From: a virus
Lineage: Duplodnaviria > Heunggongvirae > Uroviricota > Caudoviricetes
Virus record (IMG/VR): IMGVR_UViG_2600255005_000007
Coordinates: 1 to 8,899 of that record
DNA length: 8,899 nucleotides
Strand: one strand, 5' to 3'
Shown: in pieces, positions 1 through 8,899 of the stretch
How the letters are laid out: each line of letters begins with the position of its first letter
How positions within the stretch are numbered: position 1 is the first letter of the stretch
The notes under the pieces: model-generated
Databases searched by the model: none
Seen by the model: only the letters and a program-made list of their open reading frames with translations
Told to the model about the DNA's origin: nothing
Made by a program: the position numbers and the translations under genes

Positions 1-477
1 GTGATAAAGCGTGTTTTGCAGGCTGCGTTCGATGTCATCAACGCTGCGCCGCTGGCTGGCAGAGAGCGAGGCAATAAACGCTTCGGCTTTTTCCGGCGAC
101 TGCTGGCGATAAAGATTCGCCAGCCCGCGCACGGCGTTAGTGTTGCTACTGTCCATACGCAGCGTCTGCTGGTAATAGCGTTCAGCGGCGGGGTAATCTT
201 TGCGCGCCATCGCCACATCGCCCAGCCCCAGCACCGCATAGCTGTCGGCGTTATCGACATTGCGCGCCTGCTGGAACAGGCGTTCTGCCCGGTCGGGATT
301 ATTGGCTTTCAGCGCAGCATCGCCCTGCTGGATCGCCAGCCAGTAGCGATTCACCTTCAGCAGACTGTTCCATTTGTCGTTGTTGCTGCTGTGCGGATCC
401 AGCGCGAGGGCTTTTTCCAGATTCGCCACCGCATTAGCACGATCGCCATTCTGAGAATACGCCTGCCCCAGCGCCCC
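1..477 (-). pseudogene. bcsC: Internal fragment of cellulose synthase operon protein C (BcsC, TPR region). The N-terminal side is cut at 477/478; the gene continues past the window start.
   Basis: Reverse-complement translation of 477..1 reads GALGQAYSQNGDRANAVANLEKALALDPHSSNNDKWNSLLKVNRYWLAIQQGDAALKANNPDRAERLFQQARNVDNADSYAVLGLGDVAMARKDYPAAERYYQQTLRMDSSNTNAVRGLANLYRQQSPEKAEAFIASLSASQRRSVDDIERSLQN. I recognise this as the central TPR part of enterobacterial BcsC, nearly identical to my recollection of the E. coli protein. It is missing from the ORF track because it has no start or stop inside the window. Similarity ends abruptly at 477/478. Confidence 0.85.
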
Positions 478-2088
478 CGGAACGCGGCGAAAACATCAGA
501 GACGAATGCAGGTAACAGCGCGAAAGCGGCAGCTTCTTCAAAAACAGCCGCACAAAATGCAGCAACAGCGGCAGAACATTCAGAGACAAATGCCCGTGCG
601 TCAGAGGAAGCCTCCGCAGACAGTGAAGAGGCTTCCCGCCGTAATGCAGAGTCAGCCGCTGAAAATGCCGGAATCGCCACCACAAAAGCGCGGGAGGCCG
701 CAGCAGACGCAACAAAGGCCGGGCAGAAAAAGGATGAGGCTCTGTCGGCAGCGACACGAGCAGAAAAGGCGGCAGACCGCGCAGAAGCCGCAGCGGAAGT
801 GACTGCAGAGCCCTATGCGAATATAGTGCCGCCGCTGCCTGATGTATGGATACCGTTTAACGATACACTGGATATGATTACGGGGTTTTCGCCATCATAT
901 AAAAAGATTGTTATTGGTGACGATGAAATAACAATGCCAGGCGACAAGATTGTTAAGTTTAAACGTGCTTCAACAGCAACGTATATTAATAAGTCCGGCC
1001 AACTCAAGCTTGCTGAAGTTGATGAACCGCGATTTGAGCGCGATGGCTTATTGATTGAAGGACAGAGGACAAATTATCTGAGGAACTCAAATAAACCAGA
1101 CTCATGGACTGTTCATTCCGCACTGAATAAAACATTTGGCACTGATAAACAGGGGTTCAATTATGCCACGGTGACACCCACGGAAAGTATAGTGGGAACA
1201 ACAGGTGGCTATACTGTGCATGGTGTGGTTGCAGCAGACAGATTCCCGCTGGCAAGTGGTGAATGTTTCACTTTTTCGTGCCGGGTTAAAGGCGCTAAAG
1301 CACGATGCAGGTTAAGAGTTTCAGTTATTATTGGTGGAACAGATACATTCTCTGCTGACTCTTATCTTGATCTGGATACCCGGATCGCAACAGTAAGCGG
1401 TAATACATCCCTTATAACAGCCAAAGCTGAACAACAGGGCGAGTGGACCTACTATGAGGCCACTTATACAGCTAATACGGACATTGATACCGTTAACTGT
1501 GCTTTTTATATGACAAATAAAATAAGTAATGAGCCATTCTATGATGACTCAACATTAACCATGACGACGCCGCAAATTGAACTGGGCAATACGGCATCGT
1601 CATTTATTGTAACTACAATGCCAACAACACGCGCAAGTGATGTGGTTACTATCCCATCGCAGAATAACCTGTCAACACGGCCTTTTACGGTATTGTGCGA
1701 AGTAAGCAGGAACTGGAGTACACCGCCCAATGTTGCGCCAAGGATATTTGATGTTGGAGGGCACAGTATTGATGATAATTATTTATCGCTGGGGTTTGTT
1801 TCAACAGGAAAGATAAGCGCCAACGTAGGAATGGTTCAGCCACAAATTTCCTCAGATGGAGAAAGGTTCATTGTGGGTGTGAGAGCTAAATCTGATTTAT
1901 CAGTAAATGCAATATGCAGTGGTAATTATACAACAAACCTTAATGGTAAAATATTTGGAGTTACAGCAACATCGTACCGGTTTGGTGGGCAGACCGCAGC
2001 AGGAACGCGTCATTTGTTTGGACACATCAGAAATTTCAGAGTCTGGTTTAAAGAATTAAATGACAGGCAAATCAAGGAGGCAGTATGA
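478..2088 (+). CDS. Phage side tail fibre protein, 5'-truncated: Ala/Ser/Thr/Glu-rich shaft repeats followed by a distal receptor-binding region
   Basis: From 478 the frame reads RNAAKTSETNAGNSAKAAASSKTAAQNAATAAEHSETNARASEEA..., the low-complexity shaft repeat typical of lambdoid Stf-like fibres. A globular distal part follows, about 420 aa, ending ...TRHLFGHIRNFRVWFKELNDRQIKEAV. That tail resembles the usual end of LamG/ConA-like jelly-roll domains. The TGA stop at 2086-2088 overlaps the next ATG. There is no start codon of its own; the upstream open frame (1-477) is bcsC antisense. Confidence 0.8.
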   Translation, partial: RNAAKTSETNAGNSAKAAASSKTAAQNAATAAEHSETNARASEEASADSEEASRRNAESAAENAGIATTKAREAAADATKAGQKKDEALSAATRAEKAADRAEAAAEVTAEPYANIVPPLPDVWIPFNDTLDMITGFSPSYKKIVIGDDEITMPGDKIVKFKRASTATYINKSGQLKLAEVDEPRFERDGLLIEGQRTNYLRNSNKPDSWTVHSALNKTFGTDKQGFNYATVTPTESIVGTTGGYTVHGVVAADRFPLASGECFTFSCRVKGAKARCRLRVSVIIGGTDTFSADSYLDLDTRIATVSGNTSLITAKAEQQGEWTYYEATYTANTDIDTVNCAFYMTNKISNEPFYDDSTLTMTTPQIELGNTASSFIVTTMPTTRASDVVTIPSQNNLSTRPFTVLCEVSRNWSTPPNVAPRIFDVGGHSIDDNYLSLGFVSTGKISANVGMVQPQISSDGERFIVGVRAKSDLSVNAICSGNYTTNLNGKIFGVTATSYRFGGQTAAGTRHLFGHIRNFRVWFKELNDRQIKEAV

Positions 2089-2363
2089 AAGATTTAACTT
2101 TGAAATTTCCTGGTAACAGAGAGTTTAAATCCTTCCTGTCATCTCTTGACTGGGAGGAAGATGAAGACCTCCAGAATAAACTGTTAGTCGATGAAATTGG
2201 TTTCACCTACACAGAAACAGGGGTAACTGAAGAGGGAGAACCTGTCTGTATCCGGAATAACGGTTATTTTGTCAACATTCGCATTCTTGATGACTTGTTT
2301 GATGTTTCTGTATTCTCTGATTATGTCGTGGAGCTGGAAACACCGCTTCGGGAATGGAGCTGA
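2085..2363 (+). CDS. Small acidic protein (92 aa), translationally coupled to the tail fibre gene. Possibly a fibre chaperone or accessory protein; function unknown.
   Basis: ATGA start/stop overlap with the tail fibre gene. Strong SD (caAGGAGGcagtATG). Acidic composition (DWEEDEDL, TEEGEP). It does not match the classic Tfa sequence I know, so the function is inferred from position only. Confidence 0.6.
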   Translation: MKDLTLKFPGNREFKSFLSSLDWEEDEDLQNKLLVDEIGFTYTETGVTEEGEPVCIRNNGYFVNIRILDDLFDVSVFSDYVVELETPLREWS

Positions 2364-2375
2364 AAGGAGGAAATA

Positions 2376-2669
2376 ATGGATATAAGCCCCTTACTTCATG
2401 CACTTTGTGCTGTGGCTGCGCAGATACTGGTTGGTCTTTTTACCGGAAACTGGGCTTACGGAGCGATAGCCGGTTGTACGTTCTTCATTGCGCGTGAACA
2501 TACCCAGGCAGAATATCGCTGGATTGAAATGTTCGGGCATGGCAAGCGAATGAATATGCCGTGGTGGGGCGGATTTGATCCGCGCGCGTGGGATGTGGCA
2601 AGCCTGATGGATTTTGCTGTGCCGGTGGTGGCGTGTCTGCTGGTCTGGCTGTTGGTTAATCGTGGGTGA
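2376..2669 (+). CDS. Small integral membrane protein (97 aa, about 3 hydrophobic segments), prophage accessory or moron-like
   Basis: Strong SD (gaAAGGAGGaaataATG). Hydrophobic stretches are ISPLLHALCAVAAQILVGLFTG, AYGAIAGCTFFIA and LMDFAVPVVACLLVWLLV. It sits 12 nt after the previous stop. The 3' end lies next to the junction with the recombinase fragment, so the native C-terminus is uncertain. Confidence 0.6.
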   Translation: MDISPLLHALCAVAAQILVGLFTGNWAYGAIAGCTFFIAREHTQAEYRWIEMFGHGKRMNMPWWGGFDPRAWDVASLMDFAVPVVACLLVWLLVNRG

Positions 2670-2679
2670 AAAAAGGTGG

Positions 2680-3033
2680 GCTGTATATGCAACGGAGGAA
2701 GAAACCCGGGAGAAAGCGCGGATACAGAAACCGGGTGCCTGTCACATCTTCCGGCACTCGATGGCAACGCAGATGCTGGACAACGGCGCAGACACGCGGC
2801 ACATCCAGGCGATCCTCGGCCATGAGAAGCTGGAGACGACGCAGATCTACACGCGGGTAGCCATCGGTCACTTACAGGAAGTTCACGCGCTGACGCACCC
2901 GGAAGAGCAGGACGAGACGTGGACGGATCGGCACGTTGCGGATGCGGTGGCAGAGCCGCAGACGCGCCGGGAGCGTAATCACGCAGAGATGGAGCGGGCG
3001 CTGGTCAGCAGGAAACGCCGCCGGAGACGCTGA
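2680..3033 (+). pseudogene. C-terminal catalytic fragment of a tyrosine recombinase/integrase; the N-terminal two thirds are missing
   Basis: The translation contains ...KARIQKPGACHIFRHSMATQMLDNGADTRHIQAILGHEKLETTQIYTRVAIGHL. This gives the H-x-x-R box, the LGH box and the catalytic Tyr (IYTRV) of the XerC/D-phage integrase superfamily. The first catalytic Arg and the core-binding domain are absent. The upstream part of ORF 2614-3033 only overlaps the membrane-protein gene in another frame. The left boundary is approximate, about 2670-2700. Confidence 0.8.
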
Positions 3034-3110
3034 TGCAGGCCGGAAGCGTGATCATCGCCGGACTGCCTGAAAAGTTAGCGGGCGATCCCTGTAAGGCCGT
3101 GGGGTGAGGT

Positions 3111-3154
3111 GCAGGGCAGACAACCGCCTTCCCTGGCGGTTGACTGCCCCCTGC
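3111..3154. repeat. Imperfect inverted repeat / hairpin 1
   Basis: Perfect 8-bp core caaccgcc (3121-3128) / ggcggttg (3135-3142) with a 6-nt loop, ttccct. The outer arms gcagggcaga / actgccccctgc extend the pairing with one A-A mismatch and a 2-nt bulge. Confidence 0.7.
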
Positions 3155-3174
3155 CAGCGGAGTGCGCGGGGGTA

Positions 3175-3240
3175 AATGCCGTTCGCCCCGTGGAGGCAGG
3201 CGTGTCCCATGCGGCCACGGCGCACGGGGCAAACGTCATT
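3175..3240. repeat. Imperfect inverted repeat / hairpin 2
   Basis: The 18-nt arms aatgccgttcgccccgtg (3175-3192) and cacggggcaaacgtcatt (3223-3240) pair at 16 of 18 positions around a 30-nt loop. Confidence 0.7.
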
Positions 3241-3242
3241 CA

Positions 3243-3339
3243 ACATAATGCGGGGGATTATGCGCACTCTCGCCGGGTGGCAACGGCGGCGAACCCGACC
3301 CGCTGTGCGCGGCTCGTGTTCGCACAATCCGCATTATGT
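3243..3339. repeat. Imperfect inverted repeat / hairpin 3
   Basis: Perfect 11-bp outer stem acataatgcgg (3243-3253) / ccgcattatgt (3329-3339). After a GGG bulge, an inner stem attatgcgcac (3257-3267) pairs with gtgttcgcaat-type sequence (3318-3328) at 9 of 11 positions. The apical region is about 50 nt. Confidence 0.7.
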
Positions 3340-3975
3340 CTTGCGCCCCCGCGTTCAGCCCCTTAACCAGTGCCACGCGCAGCAGCTCGCTGGCGCTCGC
3401 TCCTGCCGTCTCAGCGGCGGTGTCCTTCCTCAGCGCCGCAGTCGCCGCCATCCCTGGCGGCTCCGGTGCCGTTCTGCGGCGGCGTCATCGTGTGGCAGTC
3501 AGTCAGAAAAGGGTGTCGGCCTGGCGGCCTCCGCTTGTAAGGGCTTTATGCCCGCCCGGCGTCGTCTGGCTGCGGCGGCTCGTGCCGCGCAAAAAGGCCG
3601 CGCGTCACTCGTTCCCGCCTCGCCAGCTTCCGCTGCCCGCCCCGGTCCGGTGTGGTCATGCAAAGGCCAGCTCCGGTCAGGCAGCGGTGCCACAGAGCGC
3701 CGTTCCGTCGCTTGCGGACTCTCTGCCGCCCGCACCCGCAGACCCCGCGCCGTGGCCCCGCCATGCCGCCGGAGGCGGCCTGGCGGCCCCCCGTCACGGG
3801 TTGCCGGAAACGGACTTAGTGGAAAGCGGAATGACAGGTTCGTGGCGGTGGTGATATGGTGAGCGGGCGTGAAAACGCGCGTCGGGAAAGCCGGGTTAAC
3901 GTGCTGTTAAATAATTAAAAGGTGATAGCCGTGAAGCCAGAAACGGCGCGGGCGGTAGCGTGTTAAAAAGTATGA

Positions 3976-4401
3976 CCCGCACCGGATCGTCCCGATGACC
4001 CGATAGGGCTGAGAGGCGGATTAAACTTATACCAATACGCGCCTAATCCAGTAAACTGGATCGATCCTTTGGGTTTGAAATGTGGGCAACCTGAATGGAC
4101 AAATCATGGATACAAACATTTTCCTCCAAAAAACAAATCATGGAAGGATATAATTAAATCAACAAAATCAGGCCCGGCAAAATATTCTCCAGATATTGAT
4201 ATTAAAACGTTGGAATACGATGTTTTTAATACAGGCACACCTGTTACGAACGGTAAACCATGGAAAGTAAAAGATATGGGAAAAGTTATTGGGGCCAGTG
4301 AGGGTAAAGAATCTCAATGGGTTCGAGTTGAACTTAGCGGTGGGACAATACATGGACATCCTATATCAATCGATGAATTCCGAAGGCTAACAACATCATG
4401 A
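3976..4401 (+). CDS. Orphan Rhs C-terminal toxin tip 1: core-end remnant plus a toxin domain of unrecognised family, about 110 aa, with no start codon of its own
   Basis: The open frame reads [49 protein letters not shown]...[27 protein letters not shown]. DPIGLxGGxNxYxYxxNPxxxxDPxGL is the hallmark boundary between the Rhs/YD core and its variable toxin tip. The 'start' in the ORF track (4069) is only the TTG encoding a Leu of DPLGL. Upstream, tatgacccg (YDP) sits in another frame, so the remnant is frameshifted. Confidence 0.8.
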
Positions 4402-4691
4402 ACATTGATTTCTTAGGAAAAAAAGGGAATATAGTTTTTAATGACTTCTCCCTGAAACAAAGCATCCCTCTTAATGAACAGCGAGATGAACTTAAGGAAG
4501 ATATGCTCCAGGTTGAATATCCTGGTGGGTATCTTTTGGATGTTGGGTGGCGACCATCTTTTGATATAAATGGGAAGTTTTATATTTGTTTAATAAAGGA
4601 TTTTGATTGGGATTATCCCATTTATAATGGTTCTGCGAAAGATATTGTCTCATTATTATTTGAAATTAACCAAGCTATAAATAAACTTTAA
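4398..4691 (+). CDS. Putative cognate immunity protein 1 (97 aa)
   Basis: ATGA overlap with the toxin stop. AT-rich. The small cytoplasmic-looking protein sits immediately 3' of an Rhs-CT, the canonical immunity position. A terminator hairpin follows. Confidence 0.65.
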
Positions 4692-4700
4692 ATAAACTTT

Positions 4701-4740
4701 AAAAAAACTGGGAAGAAAATTAAATCTTCCCGGCTTTTTA
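4701..4740. terminator. Bidirectional rho-independent terminator between immunity 1 and SymE-like copy A
   Basis: Stem ctgggaag (4708-4715) / cttcccgg (4726-4733), 8 bp including one G-U pair, with a 10-nt loop. It is flanked by an A7 run on the left (4701-4707) and T5 on the right (4735-4739). Confidence 0.7.
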
Positions 4741-5006
4741 TTATTTAACTCTCGTTCAGCACACTAAACATCCCGTTCCGCATCCCCTTAACCGCCTGTT
4801 TGACCTGGTAAAGTTCCCTGCGCAGTTCCTGTACTTCGTTGTTATCCGCTAGCAGGATCAGGCAACCTTCCGAGATCTTCACGGTAACGCCCGTGCCGAT
4901 CTCAAATCCCGCTTCTCTCAGCCATTTGGCGCTGATTTTGATCACCGGCGTGTCGCTTCGGTTGGGCAGATAGCCCACGGTACAGTGGCGCTGTGTTTTG
5001 GAAATG
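4719..5006. repeat. Direct repeat copy A (288 bp): right half of the terminator plus the SymE-like ORF
   Basis: Aligns base for base with 7311-7599, with 7 substitutions and 1 T-run indel. Identity ends sharply after ...gtgttttggaaatg. Confidence 0.9.
4745..4978 (-). CDS. SymE-family (AbrB/SpoVT-fold, type I toxin-like) protein, copy A, probably 5'-truncated
   Basis: The translation ...TVGYLPNRSDTPVIKISAKWLREAGFEIGTGVTVKISEGCLILLA... matches the SymE signature as I recall it from E. coli SymE ([48 protein letters not shown]). The only available start is the GTG that encodes the Val of TVGY, and it has no SD. The frame stays open upstream to a TAA with no start codon. Confidence 0.7.
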   Translation of the reverse strand: MGYLPNRSDTPVIKISAKWLREAGFEIGTGVTVKISEGCLILLADNNEVQELRRELYQVKQAVKGMRNGMFSVLNES

Positions 5007-5159
5007 ATATTTTTGTATTTAACCTGCTGATTAGATAGTAAAATAAACTTCGTGCAGATAGCTTACTTTGTCAGGGTGTGGCGGTAGCGTATGAACTATG
5101 ACGTGATGGTTTTAGTGATTTATAGACGAAACTGACAGTACGATCCGGACTTCGATTAG

Positions 5160-5621
5160 ATTGCGCGATTTGACCCGATAGGGCTGGCGGGGGGGCTGAA
5201 TCTTTATCAGTATGCGCCGAATCCGTTAAACTGGATCGATCCGCTTGGATTAAGTTGCTCTAGTGATGCAAAAAAATTATCTGGTAATTTAGGATCAGCA
5301 CCAAGTAGTCACTATCGACCACATCATATGGTTATGTCTAATTCCAGCGATGTGCGTATGCGGTGGTTACGTAGAAGGATGGATCGGTTAGGTATAGATA
5401 TAAACGATTCCAAAAATGGTGTATGGCTACCCAAAAACTCTGATTATCGGTTACCGGGGACAAAAGCTACTGCTCATGGTGGTGAAGGTGTACATGGAAA
5501 TGCATATAAACAACATGTGTGGGATACGTTGAAAAATGCAAGAACAAAAGCTGATTTTGAAGCAGGGCTTGCGCAACTTAAAGTAGAGCTAAGTACTGGC
5601 AAAACGTTTCCTGTCCAATAA
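5160..5621 (+). CDS. Orphan Rhs C-terminal toxin tip 2: HNH/EndoVII-superfamily AHH-type nuclease domain, no start codon of its own
   Basis: The open frame after TAG (5157-5159) reads [40 protein letters not shown]...[10 protein letters not shown]...[16 protein letters not shown]...[15 protein letters not shown]. The xHH dyad, the downstream NG-x-x-LP and the H-x-x-H-x-x-Y fit the AHH nuclease toxin family, here with PHH. The M at 5328 in the ORF track is internal, in the middle of the HH motif. Confidence 0.8.
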
Positions 5622-5634
5622 GGAGTATGATCAC

Positions 5635-6252
5635 ATGAAAGATTTTCTGAAAAGTTTATATGAAGATTACAATGGAAAGTATTCGGAACTGATAGAACAG
5701 ATGAACGGAGAAAAGGCTACTTGTAGATGGGGGTATGGTGTTATGCCTGCCTTCTCTATAGAACCTTATGCATCCGAGCTTTTAGGTCATAAACCGGGAC
5801 GAATGTTGAAAAATAACTCAATCGCAGGAGTAAATAAACAATGCTATTATGTTGATGAACAAAACAGGATAATAGAAGGAATTACATACGCCAGCCATCG
5901 TAAGAAAGATAATGAATGGATTGTGTATAGAAATTTTTATATTTACCAAGAAAATACCATTCTTGGGCTTTTGTATAGTAGTACATTTGAAGATAGTAAA
6001 AACACAGGATTGAATAAGATTGTATTTATAAGCATTGATAATAAATTAATAAATAATAAGTATACTTTCATGTATGATGGGGAGTATTCTGAGGTAGATT
6101 ATATTTATAATAAAGATAAAATAATAAAAATAGACCAAAGGGTATGGTCTTCGTTTTATTTTGAACGCACTTATCTGATAGAGTCAAATGATCCATTGAT
6201 TATTAATGAATACTTAGAAAATAGTGGGAACATCAGGATCTACCCTACTTAA
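5635..6252 (+). CDS. Putative cognate immunity protein 2 (205 aa)
   Basis: Good SD (taAGGAGtatgatcacATG) 13 nt after the toxin stop. Very AT-rich. Immunity position. I recognise no domain. Confidence 0.65.
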   Translation: MKDFLKSLYEDYNGKYSELIEQMNGEKATCRWGYGVMPAFSIEPYASELLGHKPGRMLKNNSIAGVNKQCYYVDEQNRIIEGITYASHRKKDNEWIVYRNFYIYQENTILGLLYSSTFEDSKNTGLNKIVFISIDNKLINNKYTFMYDGEYSEVDYIYNKDKIIKIDQRVWSSFYFERTYLIESNDPLIINEYLENSGNIRIYPT

Positions 6253-6345
6253 TTTATCAAAGTAAGAGACTAATATATGGACTATGATGCGGCTGTTTCA
6301 GGGATATGCGATTGAAGCCAGTAGTATGATCCTGCGATGGGGTAG

Positions 6346-6801
6346 ATTCACCGTCCTGATCCGATAGGGCTGGCGGGGGGAATAAACCTCTATGCTTATG
6401 CGCCGAATCCAGTAAACCACATTGATCCTCTTGGGCTATCTTGTGGAAAGGTTGGTAACGTTGAATATCGTAATTTTGAGCGTTCTCCGGGAATGTTTTC
6501 TCGGTTATTAAAGAATAAACGTGACTTTGATTATGTTGCCAGATATAACATCTCAAGATATAAAGCTACATTGAGAAAAAATAATCCGGATGGTTTTGGT
6601 AATATTAGCCATTATTTCGATGGTGTAGATGCAAAAGGAAATAAAGTCGTTATTGAGGTGGCGAATACAGGGCATAAATCTTCAAGCGGTGGTTTTGAGC
6701 CTCCACATATTAAAATTCAAATAAAAGACGCTGATAACAAAGTGATACATAATGCCAAATATTTTTTGGAAGATGATATATATAGAATTACGGGCAAATA
6801 A
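6346..6801 (+). CDS. Orphan Rhs C-terminal toxin tip 3: toxin domain of unrecognised family, about 125 aa, with no start codon of its own
   Basis: The open frame after TAG (6343-6345) reads [76 protein letters not shown]...PPHIKIQIKDADNKVIHNAKYFLEDDIYRITGK. It has the same core/toxin boundary motif. The M at 6493 in the ORF track is internal. Confidence 0.8.
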   Translation: MHRPDPIGLAGGINLYAYAPNPVNHIDPLGLSCGKVGNVEYRNFERSPGMFSRLLKNKRDFDYVARYNISRYKATLRKNNPDGFGNISHYFDGVDAKGNKVVIEVANTGHKSSSGGFEPPHIKIQIKDADNKVIHNAKYFLEDDIYRITGK

Positions 6802-7260
6802 ATGAAAAATATTAGAGAGTTAAATAATGCAGAATTCTCCGGGCTTATTAACAATGCTTTACCATTCTTACATATTAATCCTATAAGCGAAGCTGTTTGT
6901 ATTCATGCAGAAGCTTATAAAAGTGGTATTGATGTTAACTATATCCGTTGCAACGTTGACTGGGAGGGGTTTTCTTCTTTAACTGAAGCGTTGGAAACGT
7001 TATACCATGAATTATTTAAAGATGGTATTCCATCAGGCGAATTGTTGTTTTTTTACCCGTTTGATAGAACAAAGAAAGGGAATTATGGTGTTATACTGGA
7101 ATCATCTCAGCTATTAGATTTCTTAATAAAAGAGCATTTGAAGATTTATCCTGAATGTTTTAATGTAGAAATGTGTAGCTTCGGTTTTTATTTTATAGAT
7201 CACGAAATATTTTACGGCATGGAACATCCTGATTTTTTATATAGTTTCTGTGTAAGATAA
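6802..7260 (+). CDS. Putative cognate immunity protein 3 (152 aa)
   Basis: The ATG directly abuts the toxin TAA (taaATG), implying translational coupling. AT-rich. Immunity position. A terminator hairpin follows. Confidence 0.65.
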   Translation: MKNIRELNNAEFSGLINNALPFLHINPISEAVCIHAEAYKSGIDVNYIRCNVDWEGFSSLTEALETLYHELFKDGIPSGELLFFYPFDRTKKGNYGVILESSQLLDFLIKEHLKIYPECFNVEMCSFGFYFIDHEIFYGMEHPDFLYSFCVR

Positions 7261-7297
7261 TTAATAAAGTGAGGAGTATATTTCTCTTTCTTAATCG

Positions 7298-7332
7298 CCG
7301 GGAAAGGTAGATTAAATCTTCCCGGCTTTTTT
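7298..7332 (+). terminator. Rho-independent terminator after immunity 3, homologous to the one at 4701-4740
   Basis: Stem ccgggaa (7298-7304) / ttcccgg (7319-7325), followed by gc and T6 (7327-7332). Confidence 0.7.
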
Positions 7333-7599
7333 ATTATTTAACGTTCGTTCAGCACACTAAACATCCCGTCCCGCATCCCCTTAACAGCCTGTTTAACCTG
7401 ATAAAGTTCCCTGCGCAGTTCCTGTACTTCGTTGTTATCCGCTAGCAGGATCAGGCAACCTTCCGAGATCTTCACGGTAACGCCCGTGCCGATCTCAAAT
7501 CCCGCTTCTCTCAGCCATTTGGCGCTGATTTTGATCACCGGCGTGTCGCTGCGGTTGGGCAGATAGCCCACGGTACAGTGGCGCTGTGTTTTGGAAATG
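7311..7599. repeat. Direct repeat copy B (289 bp)
   Basis: See copy A. The repeat ends at the same ...ggaaatg, after which the primase-like frame begins. Confidence 0.9.
7338..7571 (-). CDS. SymE-family protein, copy B, probably 5'-truncated. The ORF track extends it to 7619.
   Basis: Same sequence as copy A with 2 amino-acid differences (N/D, and terminal S/R). The 16 extra N-terminal codons in the track (7572-7619) begin with a GTG that lies outside the repeat, on the antisense of the primase fragment, and has no SD. I treat that extension as fortuitous. Confidence 0.7.
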   Translation of the reverse strand: MGYLPNRSDTPVIKISAKWLREAGFEIGTGVTVKISEGCLILLADNNEVQELRRELYQVKQAVKGMRDGMFSVLNER

Positions 7600-8824
7600 G
7601 TGGGCCGCACTGCTGGCACACGGCGTCAGGCAGGTACTGATCGCCTACGACAACGATCCGGCGGGCAATGAGGCGGCGGTGAAACTGGCTTCTTCCTTAG
7701 CCGCTTCCGGGATCGCCACGTTCCGCGTACTGTTCCCGGCGGGCATGGATGCGAACGGTTATCTGTGCAGTGTGGCAGAGCCGGAACAGGCGTTCAGTCT
7801 GTTGCTGGATGGCGCGGTGCCCATGAGTGACCTGGCCGATGCGGAGAGTATCGCGCCGCAGGCCAGCGCGGAGCCTGCACACCTGACTTCATTAGCTGCC
7901 GGGGTTGCGGTCTTACCCGCAGCCGCCGCGCCTGCACCGGGCGTCAGCGTGGAAACCCTGGCCGATGGCGAACTGATGGTAGCCTTACCCGGCGAACGCT
8001 GGACTATCAGGGGCGTAAGCCGCAAACCGAACGTCGCCGCGATGAAGGTCAATGCGCAGGTGCTGGACACCAACAGCGGCGTGGTGTTCGCTGATGCGGT
8101 GGATATGATGAGCGCCCGCAGCCGTTCCGGTTATGCGCGGGCCGCAGCGGCAGAGCTTGGGCTTGCCGAAGGCGACCTGCGCCGTTCGCTGGGTAAGGTG
8201 CTGCTGGCGCTGGAGCACTGGCAGGCGGCACCGGAGCCGGAGAGCGTCGCCCCGGAGATGACGCCGGAAGATCGGGAGGCGGCGCTGGATCTGCTGCGCG
8301 ACGAGTGTCTTGCCGGGCGCATCGCTTCTGATATGGCGGCGTGTGGCGTGGTGGGTGAGTCCACCAACCTGACGGCGGCGTATCTGGCGGCGGTGTCACG
8401 CAAACTGGAGCGCCCGCTTGCCGTTCTCATCCAGTCGTCGAGCGCGGCGGGTAAGTCCAGCTTAATGGATGCGGTGCTCAATCTGATCCCGCCAGAGGAA
8501 CGGCTGCAATACAGCGCCATGACCGGGCAGAGCCTGTTCTACCTCGGCGAAACCAACCTGCAACACAAGATCCTCGCCATCGCAGAAGAAGAAGGTGTGC
8601 GCCAGGCGGCGTATGCGCTGAAACTGTTGCAATCAGACGGGGAACTGACCATCGCCAGTACGGGCAAGGACGACGCCAGCGGCAACCTGGTCACCAAACA
8701 GTACACGGTGAAAGGCCCGGTGATGCTGATGCTGACCACCACGGCGATCGACGTCGATGAAGAACTGTTAAACCGCTGCCTGGTGCTGACGGTGAACGAG
8801 TCGCGGGAGCAGACGGAGGCCGAA
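7598..8824 (+). pseudogene. Internal fragment of a Toprim / P-loop NTPase primase-helicase-like protein of an integrative or conjugative element, truncated at both ends
   Basis: VLIAYDNDPAGNEAAVKLA...FRVLFPAGMDANGYL looks like the distal Toprim DxD region. Later, LIQSSSAAGKSSLMDAV is Walker A-like and HKILAIAEEEG is Walker B-like. The codon usage is GC-rich and coding-like, and all minus-strand ORFs here are shadows. There is no native start because the frame enters from the SymE repeat. At the 3' end the reading frame runs into the rrn leader and stops there fortuitously. Confidence 0.7.
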
Positions 8825-8899
8825 CTGCTCTTTAACAATTTATCAGACAATCTGTGTGGGCACTCGAAGATACGGATTCTTAACGTCCTCGGACGATAA
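8824..8899 (+). promoter_or_regulatory. rRNA operon leader including the boxA antitermination element; 16S rRNA expected just downstream of the window
   Basis: actgctctttaacaatttatcagacaatctgtgtgggcactcgaagatacggattcttaacgtc is identical to my recollection of the E. coli rrn leader downstream of P2. boxA tgctctttaacaa is at 8826-8838. The following small hairpin differs in a compensatory way (cgtcctcggacg versus cgtcgcaagacg), consistent with a natural rrn variant. Confidence 0.8.

Follow-up and report, generated by a model that had tools for sequence, protein, structure and literature searches.

Sequence comparison places the AT-rich toxin array of the window (the whole 8,899-nt stretch of DNA analysed here) between two successive copies of a conserved primase-recombinase module, and indicates that the truncated genes beside it result from the joining of contigs in a poor genome assembly, not from biological decay. 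It is highly probable that positions 2707-8821 are a slice of the orphan-toxin array behind a T6SS Rhs gene in an Escherichia ruysiae-like genome, and we have little doubt that this slice comprises the 3′ end of one module, three orphan tip/immunity cassettes and the next module copy. We are just as confident that the source of the window is a pseudo-chromosome of concatenated short-read contigs, broken at near-identical parts of the multi-copy module. More tentatively, the module may serve as backbone to an integrative, plasmid-like element by which new Rhs tips are installed; as a whole, we hold the explanation developed below to be the best one with moderate confidence. The features of the window discussed here are as follows:

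2706/2707, apparent artificial join of a Rac-type prophage tail-fibre region to the interior of a recombinase gene
2707-3033, plus strand, 3′ part of the recombinase gene, about the last 108 aa (about aa 259-366 of 366) and the stop codon
3034-3995, no strand, non-coding spacer, 962 nt, 67% GC
3237-3339, no strand, palindrome with two inverted dif-like (Xer-type) core sites
3997-4401, plus strand, orphan Rhs fragment 1, an 81-nt core-end (3997-4077) and a ~108-aa tip with no assigned family
4398-4691, plus strand, putative immunity gene 1, 97 aa, overlapping the tip 1 stop codon by 4 nt
4702-5006, minus strand, SymE copy 1, 5′-shortened (ORF 4745-4978, 77 aa)
5137-5621, plus strand, orphan Rhs fragment 2, ~35 nt of degenerate Rhs core, core-end from 5172, AHH tip
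5635-6252, plus strand, putative immunity gene 2, 205 aa
6323-6801, plus strand, orphan Rhs fragment 3, ~35 nt of degenerate core, core-end from 6358, tip with no assigned family
6802-7260, plus strand, putative immunity gene 3, 152 aa
7301-7601, minus strand, SymE copy 2 and its 3′ flank, cut ~30 nt before the start by the next join
7601/7602, apparent artificial join, 1,496 nt skipped
7602-8821, plus strand, internal fragment of the next unit's primase gene, codons ~289-695 of 983
8821/8822, apparent artificial join of the primase interior to an rRNA operon leader (boxA region)

The complete module spans ~6.3 kb and consists of SymE and HTH repressor genes on the minus strand, a gene for a DnaG/Toprim primase with a P-loop extension and one for an XerC/XerD-like recombinase on the plus strand, and a spacer. 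This spacer, ~930 nt of GC-rich non-coding DNA in intact loci, is followed on the right by a Rhs core-end and a toxin tip with its immunity gene, and the unit recurs in tandem downstream of the T6SS Rhs gene. E. coli loci read VgrG, Eag-like protein, Rhs and immunity, then repeats of a unit made up of tip, immunity, SymE, HTH, primase, XerC, spacer and Rhs fragment, an architecture also found in Pectobacterium, Photorhabdus, Xenorhabdus, Marinibactrum, Burkholderiales and Geobacteraceae. Overall, the primase-recombinase pair was syntenic and Rhs-linked at 69 loci from several bacterial phyla, and the recombinase gene came next in all primase copies with enough downstream sequence (70/70); SymE was limited to Enterobacterales and a few other copies. 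As the primase lies upstream of the recombinase in intact loci, the window holds the end of one unit, the array that separates it from its successor, and the beginning of that successor.

The window matches GCA_000208585.2 (AEMF01000001.1; positions 4367 to 13265 of our locus L005) at 100%. This 4.46-Mb draft is a single record of butt-joined, unrelated pieces, here in the order bcsC, prophage tail fibre, toxin array and rrn leader. In a near-identical locus from Escherichia ruysiae (L006), the recombinase and primase genes are both whole; L006 7072-11968 equals window 2706-7602 at 99.98%, and L006 13465-14684 equals window 7602-8821 at 100%. Window positions 476-2706 share 99% identity with prophage DNA of E. 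coli, where each genome has a different sequence beyond this stretch, while L006 is unbroken across the position equivalent to 2706/2707. The 7601/7602 join has lost the SymE 5′ end, the complete HTH gene and primase codons 1-288; the missing piece (L006 11969-13464) is largely 97-100% identical between unit copies, and contigs of four other short-read assemblies stop at SymE/HTH here and begin within the recombinase gene. Beyond the last join, the final 78 nt of the window were matched in 5,426 of 5,426 E. coli genomes (median 7 places per genome), and in L005 a complete 16S gene follows 8822, with a YadA-like gene 73 nt on where the spacer and 23S would stand. The direct continuation of window position 8821 is L006 14685-17657, whose reverse complement forms L005 1-2971, an inverted piece 8.9 kb upstream that holds the 3′ end of the primase gene and the 5′ end of the recombinase gene absent from the window. 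Because both genes are whole in the relative and their missing ends lie inverted upstream, we read the truncations as assembly artefacts.

It is very unlikely that true rearrangements or deletions in the strain instead produced the truncations and the incongruous neighbours (bcsC, tail fibre, rrn leader). Such a reading can draw on the deposition of the record as one contiguous sequence with no N runs and on the long-standing view of Rhs loci as 'rearrangement hot spots', but it would have to accommodate four places within 8.9 kb at which unrelated DNA is bluntly joined, a 16S gene lacking its spacer and 23S, the exact complement of the 8821 break in inverted orientation 8.9 kb away, and two chimeric junction ORFs that occur only on AEMF01000001.1 among ~15 billion proteins; moreover, most breakpoints are boundaries of near-identical repeat segments and contig ends in the four other assemblies. 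Even harder to credit is the decay of a single recombinase- and primase-bearing integrative element whose interior was replaced by the Rhs orphan array, as the earlier note had proposed. It is true that both fragments are GC-rich, share a strand and are incomplete in the window, and they do come from one element family, the genes being adjacent in every relative examined. Yet this proposal has the wrong topology, since the primase gene directly precedes the recombinase gene in all intact copies, with a gap of only ~120-340 nt, and therefore no recombinase-to-primase 'interior' exists; in the near-identical relative, moreover, both genes are whole and this array again lies between two units, and the recombinase cut lies away from the array.

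Other parts of that note fared better, and we regard its observation as partly confirmed and its interpretation as partly supported. The GC contrast is real (0.663 at 2707-3995, 0.371 in the array at 3996-7337, 0.643 at 7602-8821), the fragments were correctly named as tyrosine recombinase and Toprim/P-loop primase and placed on the plus strand, and the toxin tips are physically linked to the recombinase-primase module. The statement that both genes are truncated on the side facing the array was wrong for the pair: in the recombinase part, the 3′ end towards the array is preserved with its stop codon (3031-3033) and the cut is at the 5′ end, while the primase part has the array-facing cut and, in addition, one at 8821/8822 on the far side. 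The 'decayed' island was mostly the concatenated-contig artefact, leaving one apparently genuine remnant. By its context, SymE copy 1 is what is left of a deleted backbone and the one true decay here: it is directly followed by a Rhs fragment in place of HTH-primase, this junction is repeated in six related assemblies, and the homologous tip-immunity-SymE block of E. coli CP028739 (L002) runs on into an intact HTH-primase-recombinase backbone. SymE copy 1 forms a 272-nt direct repeat (97%) with 7328-7599; the intact counterpart of copy 2 (L006 11704-11997) encodes 97 aa, and SymE homologues match Pfam SymE_toxin.

The recombinase fragment includes the HxxR, H and catalytic Y region in translation. 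The whole gene (L006 6299-7399) encodes a protein that scores 527 bits against NCBIfam NF002331 (cut-off 371) and 124 bits against the integron-integrase model, below its cut-off of 265, with E. coli XerD (1a0p) as the nearest solved structure. The complete primase (983 aa) is of the CHC2-zinc-finger/DnaG/Toprim type, its DnaG-like portion forming the N-terminal third ahead of a long C-terminal extension; the fragment in the window starts within the Toprim domain and covers the P-loop region, both its ends being assembly joins. The spacer always follows the recombinase gene, measures 903-963 nt in Enterobacterales with conserved sequence islands in the alignment, and keeps a GC content of 62-68% even in AT-rich Photorhabdus and Xenorhabdus; it gives tblastx matches in every frame, lacks 3-nt periodicity and has fold z-scores of -3.1 and -3.6. 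Its final ~45 nt (..TAAAAAGTATGACCCGCACCGGATCGTCCCGAT) adjoin the Rhs core-end.

Within the spacer, the palindrome occurs once per backbone and comprises a left site, ATTCAACATAA-TGCGGGGG-GATTATGCGCA, a loop and a right site, TTCGCACAA-TCCGCA-TTATGTCTTGC; it is predicted to form a hairpin of two helices around a bulged centre. In a covariation test on 15 copies from Pectobacteriaceae, Photorhabdus and Scandinavium, 96.1% of cells were paired versus 85.7% in shuffles and 21-49% in slid controls, and 7 pairs had changed on both sides. The dif-like arms (CATAA/TTATG) look cognate to the recombinase and lie 130-450 nt past its gene; they are intact in all integrated copies and bear no resemblance to the Rhs core-end junction, which counts against the tip-delivery mechanism proposed below. 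The paired sites are the likeliest candidates for the binding sites of the recombinase.

Between the two modules, three orphan Rhs C-terminal tips stand in frame with a conserved DPIGL..DPLGL core-end (from 3997, 5172 and 6358), each followed by a small ORF, along with the two minus-strand SymE copies. Fragment 1, with a core-end of 27 residues, belongs to repeat family D2 and matches TIGR03696 (Rhs_assc_core), as does fragment 3; fragment 2 belongs to families D2 and D3, and its tip is an AHH-family HNH/EndoVII nuclease (Pfam PF14412, E=1.3e-10). Family searches returned no match for immunity genes 1 and 2; the former is conserved in position with tip 1 in E. coli CP028739, and the product of the latter has exact copies on 24 contigs in unchanged context. 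Tips 2 and 3 carry ragged Rhs-core remnants and no backbone, and other routes of tip accumulation therefore also operate.

In every genus, the DPxG codons mark the limit of backbone homology, which ends at their first base (in the window, exactly at 3996/3997), and the tip1-immunity-SymE homology between E. ruysiae and E. coli begins exactly at 3997. Two tandem duplications also bear on the unit ends: the one in Xenorhabdus sp. TCT-1 is perfect, measures 6,908 bp and is bounded by 12-13 nt (GACCCCATCGGG), and the one in Marinibactrum covers 6,977 bp with an 11-nt boundary. The longest identical runs that flanking core-ends have in common measure 11-15 nt, which is below what RecA needs. All 12 Escherichia core-ends carry CCG-ATA-GGG unchanged, and among 10 from Pectobacteriaceae it hardly varies (two have GGT), whereas nearby Gly and Pro codons, equally conserved as residues, vary freely (1.3-2.0 bits). 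The apparent confinement of the crossover to 12 nt is partly due to conservation, because the 11-12-nt motif is the most conserved DNA of the core-end. In tandem copies (L038 and L064), the tip and immunity gene are duplicated with the backbone and a different tip stands at the far right. Two Xenorhabdus japonica backbones, identical over 5,846 nt, have different tips on both sides, a pattern that fits cassette shuffling or cargo-free backbone movement better than strict cargo linkage, and in Xenorhabdus mauleonii the duplicated block reaches 535 nt into the Rhs core. Circular records from Lonsdalea (11.3 kb, carrying tips) and Shigella (8.76 kb) are such units with the spacer end joined to the core-end; both could be long-read assembly artefacts of tandem repeats. 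We found no empty-site/occupied-site pair and no experimentally verified circle.

Under the tip-delivery mechanism that we tentatively propose, the cargo would be the tip and immunity pair to the left of the backbone. In the circular form, the spacer end would meet the Rhs core-end (GACCCGATAGGG..., encoding DPIG...) with the new tip next, and recombination of this short sequence with the same codons in a resident rhs gene would attach the incoming tip, in frame, to the Rhs shell already present. The earlier tip would be displaced downstream, behind the backbone, amounting to 'C-terminal displacement' with an enzyme attached. The excised form might be replicated by the primase, repressed by the HTH protein and, where present, stabilised by SymE, and the dif-like sites could serve multimer resolution or act as a folded single-strand site as in CTX phage.

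It is rather unlikely that the module is instead a plasmid-like episome that enters and leaves through the Rhs core-end by homology or microhomology, with an XerC-like enzyme that is no integrase and only resolves multimers, as Cre/loxP does for P1. This would suit dif-like sites that adjoin the recombinase gene, are intact in every copy and do not resemble the core-end junction, the closeness of the recombinase to XerD, the reach into the Rhs core in X. mauleonii, which is expected of homologous exchange, and the RecA-dependent orphan activation established in Salmonella (Koskiniemi 2014, cited in PMC5727410). The flanking core-ends, however, mostly share just 11-15 identical nt, the unit end is nucleotide-precise in distant genera, and CCGATAGGG is invariant at synonymous sites. 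We think it improbable that the tips are neighbours and not cargo, with the module either a selfish element using Rhs arrays as a safe landing site or a resident Rhs platform. The X. japonica backbones, the orphan tips without backbone in the window and the ~25-point GC difference between backbone and tips all speak for this, but tip and immunity gene are co-duplicated with the backbone in three genera as well as in E. coli and Shigella, the tip1-immunity-SymE block sits on a backbone in E. coli and on a backbone remnant here, and tips are present on the circular Lonsdalea record.

Among known systems, P4-like satellites and PICI-type islands are small integrative replicons with an integrase, a repressor and a primase-helicase. 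The module resembles them in its divergent HTH repressor and primase genes, adjacent tyrosine recombinase, size of 6-9 kb, multiple copies and possible circular forms; it differs in having no recognised packaging or capsid-redirection genes, an rhs gene and not a tRNA gene as target, and a recombinase of Xer type with no arm-binding domain. The attP of CTX phage, in work attributed to Val and colleagues in 2005, reportedly contains two inverted dif-like sites whose single-stranded fold is the XerCD substrate. Here, too, two inverted Xer-type core sites flank a short loop in a predicted hairpin with paired arms and a partly unpaired centre, and the HTH protein resembles the CTX repressor RstR at a sub-threshold score (62 bits, cut-off 80). 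Unlike CTX, the element encodes its own recombinase, is not integrated at chromosomal dif, keeps its palindrome intact in every integrated copy and has no filamentous-phage genes. Integrons share an Xer-clade recombinase, promoterless cassette arrays at one place and a hairpin-forming candidate recombination site, but the recombinase here falls below the integron-integrase cut-off, the palindrome occurs once per backbone and not once per cassette, insertion takes place within a coding sequence, and the 'platform' is itself present in repeated copies. XerC/D genes adjoining polyimmunity loci (Zhang et al. 2012, PMC3482391) and recombinase-associated acquired interbacterial defence (rAID) loci of Bacteroidales (Ross et al. 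2019; see also bioRxiv 10.64898/2026.07.13.738213, 2026) likewise link an Xer-type tyrosine recombinase physically to toxin-immunity arrays, and the hosts found here include Xenorhabdus and Photorhabdus; the parts of these descriptions available to us concern immunity arrays and contain no mention of a primase, an HTH partner, units of 6-7 kb in tandem or a junction within the DPxG codons of Rhs. Orphan toxin/immunity arrays built by 'C-terminal displacement' (Jackson et al. 2009, PMC2935791; Koskiniemi et al. 2014) comprise a full-length rhs and immunity gene followed by truncated Rhs fragments that start from or near the core-end (PxxxxDPxGL), with AT-rich variable tips that each have their own immunity gene, and the three cassettes of the window fit this description exactly. 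The classical model involves no dedicated enzyme, whereas here the cassettes are interspersed with a recombinase-primase-repressor module whose end matches the core-end to the base.

The interval 2680-8824 of the window falls into three blocks of base composition (66% GC at 2707-3995, 37% at 3996-7337 and 64% at 7602-8821), and these blocks, together with the gene calls, agree with the composition contrast, the strands and the gene identities described in an earlier note on this DNA. In the list that follows, a core-end is the 81-nt conserved end of the Rhs core (DPxGL..DPxGL), a tip is the variable C-terminal toxin domain, and a backbone is the set of SymE, HTH, primase and XerC-like recombinase genes with a GC-rich spacer, which is taken to form a unit together with the tip and immunity genes beside it.

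Features of the window
1-475, minus strand: BcsC TPR region, the left-hand neighbour
476-2706: side-tail-fibre region of a Rac-type prophage, with 99% identity to E. coli
stop codon at 3031-3033, plus strand: 3' end of the recombinase gene, then 962 nt without a credible ORF
3237-3339: palindrome, 130-210 nt past the recombinase stop codon, one intact copy per backbone
3997, 5172 and 6358 (starts): three 81-nt Rhs core-end copies, each in frame with a different C-terminal tip
4398-4691, 5635-6252 and 6802-7260: putative immunity ORFs, assigned by position, adjoining or overlapping each tip
4745-4978 and 7338-7601, minus strand: SymE copies, forming a 272-nt direct repeat of 97% identity
7602-8821: internal piece of the primase gene, cut at both ends
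8822-8899: rRNA operon leader (boxA), joined to the primase fragment; about seven copies in every E. coli genome

The core-ends scored 35-36 bits against the TIGR03696 Rhs_assc_core model (cut-off 32.5), and tip 2 matched the AHH-family nucleases in Pfam (E=1.3e-10); tips 1 and 3 and the three putative immunity proteins had no family match in Pfam or NCBIfam. Rfam searches of the whole window gave zero matches at gathering thresholds, and its E-value mode on 3000-4100 gave chance-level matches only. PADLOC assigned no defence system beyond generic primase and HTH similarity, the phage collection held DnaG-domain matches only, all distant (<30%), and for 5007-5136, which separates SymE copy 1 from Rhs fragment 2, no homologue was found outside the same lineage.

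The earlier note had proposed that the AT-rich array replaced the interior of a decayed recombinase/primase island, with both flanking genes truncated on the side facing the array. The truncations run otherwise: what is left of the recombinase is its C-terminal third (with HxxR, H and catalytic Y), so that its gene is cut at the 5' end, away from the array, and the primase fragment, which is cut on both sides, holds only the end of Toprim and the P-loop region. An exact-protein search with the 205-aa ORF led to the source: the window is 100% identical to about 4.231-4.240 Mb of AEMF01000001.1, the single record (4.46 Mb) of GCA_000208585.2, and five observations on this record and its relatives show that the breaks are contig joins. 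The Escherichia ruysiae record NZ_CABVLQ010000001.1 (L006) is 99.98% identical over window 2706-7602 and 100% over 7602-8821, its recombinase gene is whole, and SymE, HTH and primase lie whole between those two stretches; the 1,496 nt absent at 7601/7602 and the sequence absent after 8821 are largely 97-100% identical between the two unit copies, and the parts kept in the window are the copy-specific ones (87-92% identity between copies). The continuation of 8821 (L006 14685-17657: primase 3' end, entire recombinase and spacer) sits inverted 8.9 kb upstream in AEMF01000001.1, where it abuts the bcsC piece. In the matching region of the same record (L005), a complete 16S rRNA gene (13336-14877) is followed 73 nt later by a YadA-like adhesin gene instead of spacer and 23S. 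Four other short-read assemblies carry the same unique segment, from recombinase interior to SymE/HTH, on 5.8-6.2-kb contigs, and the two junction-spanning ORFs were found on this record only among about 15 billion proteins. The appearance of a decayed island is thus a product of a concatenated draft assembly; the window shows an Rhs array of ordinary appearance that was damaged in assembly, and no reliance should be placed on annotation derived from the GCA_000208585.2 record, with its two chimeric ORFs and its cut-off recombinase and primase.

In many short-read assemblies of E. coli, too, the primase lies on contigs of about 5.3-6.2 kb, roughly the length of one unit; collapse of the module into a contig of its own is routine, and draft genomes thereby lose its Rhs context. 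At the left of the window, positions 1-2088 form a chimeric 695-aa ORF, present in one database record only, whose first 475 nt are the antisense bcsC TPR region, joined at 475/476 to a 5'-truncated prophage side-tail-fibre gene. The stretch 476-2706 holds a tail fibre, two small ORFs and the beginning of a tail-fibre-assembly remnant and matches E. coli B/REL606 and lambda-like phages at 99% identity, while chromosomal pieces in this record match E. coli at only about 90-95%, a gap that suggests recent phage exchange between Escherichia species.

Intact loci revealed the architecture from which the window derives. In E. coli CP060946 and CP028739, the ansP-pptA (RhsE) locus carries a repeating series of tip, immunity, SymE (minus), HTH (minus), primase (plus, 983-988 aa), a gap of about 200 nt, XerC-like recombinase (plus, 366-369 aa), GC-rich spacer (about 960 nt) and Rhs core-end fragment, with VgrG and a DcrB/Eag-like protein upstream of the array. 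The same series occurs in the E. ruysiae relative, where a 1,550-aa PAAR-RHS protein precedes unit 1 and the 6.26-kb repeat unit extends from about 40 nt past the stop of SymE through the whole core-end. Aligned with these loci, the window reads as unit 1 (its 3' end), the array between the two units and the beginning of unit 2, and so no interior was replaced. What stands of the island proposal is that recombinase and primase belong to one tip-linked element family; its topology was wrong and the decay artefactual. The one real remnant in the window is SymE copy 1, which lacks its 5' end and passes directly into Rhs fragment 2; in CP028739 the tip1-immunity-SymE homologue (90% identity, aligning from exactly 3997) continues into an intact HTH-primase-recombinase backbone.

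Family tests were run on the module proteins. An intact recombinase homologue scored 527 bits against NF002331 (cut-off 371) and matched the Pfam Phage_integrase and SAM-like N domains; its scores against the XerC and XerD equivalog models (224/335 and 222/330 bits) were both below cut-off, indicating a Xer-like enzyme distinct from host XerC, and those against the integron integrase models were 124 bits for TIGR02249 (cut-off 265) and 73 for NF011946 (cut-off 435). The primase matched Zn_ribbon_DnaG, DNAG_N (below cut-off) and Toprim_2/3/4 in Pfam, with a weak P-loop match (AAA_29), and residues 8-350 matched the DnaG structure 2au3 in the PDB; it is predicted to be a DnaG-type primase (CHC2 zinc finger, core, Toprim) with a P-loop domain. 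Pfam SymE_toxin matched homologues of the window copies, both of which were assigned by homology; the NCBIfam SymE equivalog score was 49.5, below its cut-off of 132, and SymR antisense RNA had no Rfam match at the gathering threshold. The best match of the HTH protein, sub-threshold, was the CTX repressor RstR.

The module is widespread. Scanning one genome per species gave 73 loci, from Enterobacterales (Scandinavium, Dickeya, Pectobacterium, Samsonia, Photorhabdus and Xenorhabdus), other Gammaproteobacteria, Betaproteobacteria, Geobacteraceae and MAGs labelled Acidobacteria, Puniceicoccaceae and 'delta proteobacterium'. Of the full-length primase copies with sufficient sequence downstream, all 70 were followed by the recombinase. 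At least 34 of 43 copies had an Rhs gene or core-end no more than 4 kb upstream, and at least 14 of 33 had one no more than 2.6 kb downstream, both Rhs counts being lower bounds because Cellvibrio-type variant fragments (GGCYVGNDPVNKxDPTGM) escaped the search pattern. Many genomes held several module copies, often on 4-8-kb contigs, and SymE was limited to Enterobacterales and a few others. Across Enterobacterales, GC was, whatever the host, 58-64% in the backbone and mostly 62-68% in the spacer, against about 36-54% in the tips, so the composition contrast noticed earlier is a property of the family.

Within the spacer, whose length is conserved in Enterobacterales (903-963 nt), a protein-coding role was rejected, as its 217-228-aa ORF lacks codon periodicity and tblastx conservation extends to all frames. 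The palindrome has arms of ATTCAACATAA...TTATGCG and CGCA(C/T)AA-N6-8-TTATGTC, that is, two inverted Xer-type core sites, and nearly all family members have at least one dif-like site past the recombinase gene; the Aliikangiella right arm is identical to the XerD arm of E. coli dif, and the left arm of one Nitrosomonadales copy matches the XerC arm at 10/11 positions. Folded as a hairpin, 15 short-form copies have 96.1% of cells paired versus 85.7% in shuffles, with compensatory changes supporting pairing (seven pairs altered on both sides; slid controls 21-49%), figures that come from 15 sequences related to one another and a structure derived from the same sequences. As the palindrome is intact once per backbone, with no half-site at the array edges, it was rejected as the integration crossover. 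It is the most plausible candidate for the binding site of the XerD-like recombinase, and it may serve multimer resolution or act as a folded single-strand site like the CTX-phage attP.

Loose matches to the dif pattern elsewhere (L006 1748 and 18366; locus L001 12447) look like chance in AT-rich DNA; the one at L006 18366-18394, inside the final cassette and close to where the E. ruysiae array ends on the right, is a near-perfect dif-like palindrome (ATCCCACATAA-CATAGGG-TTATGTCGTGA) that could be either chance or a terminal site. At window 3114-3149 and 3445-3460 the spacer also contains a second strong hairpin with a 15-bp stem (GGGCAGACAACCGCC-ttccct-GGCGGTTGACTGCCC) and two copies, 321 nt apart, of the palindromic motif CCGCC(A/T)TCCCTGGCGG, the second copy being 90-92% conserved between Escherichia and Photorhabdus. 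At about 3541-3640 (alignment A1 columns ~585-690), a block of about 100 nt is 80-90% identical in Dickeya, Pectobacterium, Photorhabdus and Xenorhabdus, hosts with recombinases only about 50-68% identical to the query; Escherichia has a different version and one Pectobacterium copy is hybrid, a pattern that implies recombination among spacers.

The right end of the spacer is defined to the base. In every genus compared, the non-Rhs spacer ends at the first base of the core-end DPxG codons (in Escherichia, ...GGATCGTCCCGAT meeting GACCCGATAGGG...). The complete chromosome of Xenorhabdus sp. TCT-1 (L038 4343-18170) carries a tandem duplication, perfect at 100% identity, whose 6,908-bp unit has GACCCCATCGGG at its bounds; its left limit is this same base, the first of the DPxG codons, in the full-length rhs gene; the duplication's right limit lies 12 nt into the next, different core-end. 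Such identity points to a very recent event and makes this tandem unit a good experimental system. Marinibactrum has an equivalent 6,977-bp tandem duplication with an 11-nt boundary, and in both genomes tip and immunity are duplicated together with the backbone, a different tip stands at the far right, and a direct repeat of 11-13 nt at the first DPxG codons bounds the perfect tandem units; flanking core-ends otherwise have only 11-15 identical bases in common. The CCG-ATA-GGG codons are invariant in 12 distinct Escherichia core-ends, though ATA is a rare codon, and among 10 Pectobacteriaceae core-ends the Gly codon alone varies, in two (GGT), whereas Gly and Pro codons further along the motif, which are just as conserved, show 1.3-2.0 bits of synonymous diversity. 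The base-precise ends, short repeats and synonymous invariance argue for the core-end being a DNA-level site, used by short-core recombination rather than RecA-type exchange. On the other hand, in Xenorhabdus japonica (L052 9147-21668) two backbones are identical over 5,846 nt with different tips flanking on both sides; exchange of tips can outpace mutation of the backbone. In Cellvibrionaceae and Oxalobacteraceae MAGs (L061, L076 and L077), the Rhs-like fragment after the recombinase begins in the second half of the core-end (GGCYVGNDPVNKxDPTGM), not at DPxGL, and the junction position may differ between lineages.

From the observed module, with its gene order, Rhs linkage, base-precise right end, tandem units bounded by 11-13 nt and dif-like palindrome, a mechanism can be proposed. 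The unit (core-end, tip, immunity, SymE where present, HTH, primase, recombinase and spacer) would be an episome-like element that recombines with a resident rhs gene through the DPxG codons, fusing its own tip to the resident shell and displacing the old tip behind the backbone; an excised circle would have the spacer end joined to GACCCGATAGGG-tip, with the rhs gene restored. Two circular records have a spacer end joined to a core-end in this way: the plasmid-annotated 11,289-bp NZ_CP072857.1 of Lonsdalea populi, in which one unit is complete and the other truncated in its primase, both having a nuclease tip and an immunity gene, and the 8,758-bp NZ_CP055112.1 of Shigella flexneri, which amounts to a single period of the E. 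coli CP060946 array, ISAs1 copy included. They may be excised forms or, equally, long-read assembly artefacts of tandem repeats. The Lonsdalea record also has a RelE/DinJ toxin-antitoxin pair inserted in the spacer, between recombinase gene and palindrome. K-12 rhsE was considered as an empty site and rejected, since it carries a different, unrelated tip.

It is possible, if in our judgment rather doubtful, that the module is a self-replicating 'tip shuttle', integron-like, with its attachment site inside the Rhs DPxG codons, swapping toxin-immunity pairs in frame and archiving the old pair, the paired inverted dif-like sites forming a CTX-like folded single-strand site. Integration would then be in frame, recombinase-dependent, RecA-independent and dependent on the core-end motif CCGATAGGG. 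In the main rival the element is still an episome, but it would integrate through homology, with the recombinase acting as a Cre/loxP-like resolvase. The dif-like sites lie 130-450 nt past the recombinase gene and are never split, they do not lie at the core-end junction, no dyad symmetry was recognised there, and one Xenorhabdus locus has a longer homologous boundary; the short repeats and invariant codons at the junction favour short-core recombination over RecA-type exchange.

Previously, new Rhs C-terminal tips were explained only by generic homologous recombination, with an integrase explicitly noted as missing (PMC2935791). Integrase-like genes are associated with Rhs in bee-gut symbionts, XerC/D adjoin polyimmunity loci (PMC3482391), and Martinkus et al. 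2026 (Curr Biol 2026;36:176), as cited, describe systems in Xenorhabdus and Photorhabdus that depend on Xer and lie beside Rhs poly-immunity arrays. In the literature we found no account of a primase-recombinase module linked to Rhs, of its tandem units, of the junction at the core-end or of paired dif-like sites; that last study, judged by its citation, likely overlaps. If true, the tip shuttle would supply, across Proteobacteria and beyond, the enzyme and vehicle missing since 2009 from the C-terminal-displacement model, in which a new tip is fused to the Rhs shell and the old one left downstream as an orphan. With a module welded base-precisely to the core-end from Escherichia to Geobacteraceae, often in tandem and possibly as small circles, the question of tip acquisition becomes directly testable, and the module would account for the GC-rich/AT-rich mosaic of Rhs loci and the shattering of short-read assemblies there.

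Overall, the module is a little-described variant of recombinase-associated toxin loci. The window's cassettes are ordinary Rhs orphans, whereas the interleaved module falls outside the classical orphan description. The system resembles integrons in logic, but it has no IntI-type integrase and carries one palindrome per backbone, with none between backbone-free cassettes, where integrons have an attC per cassette. Its logic is also like that of IMEX of the CTX type, which use host XerCD, and paired inverted dif-like sites are present here; unlike IMEX, which lack their own recombinase and sit at chromosomal dif, this element carries its own recombinase and resides in rhs arrays.
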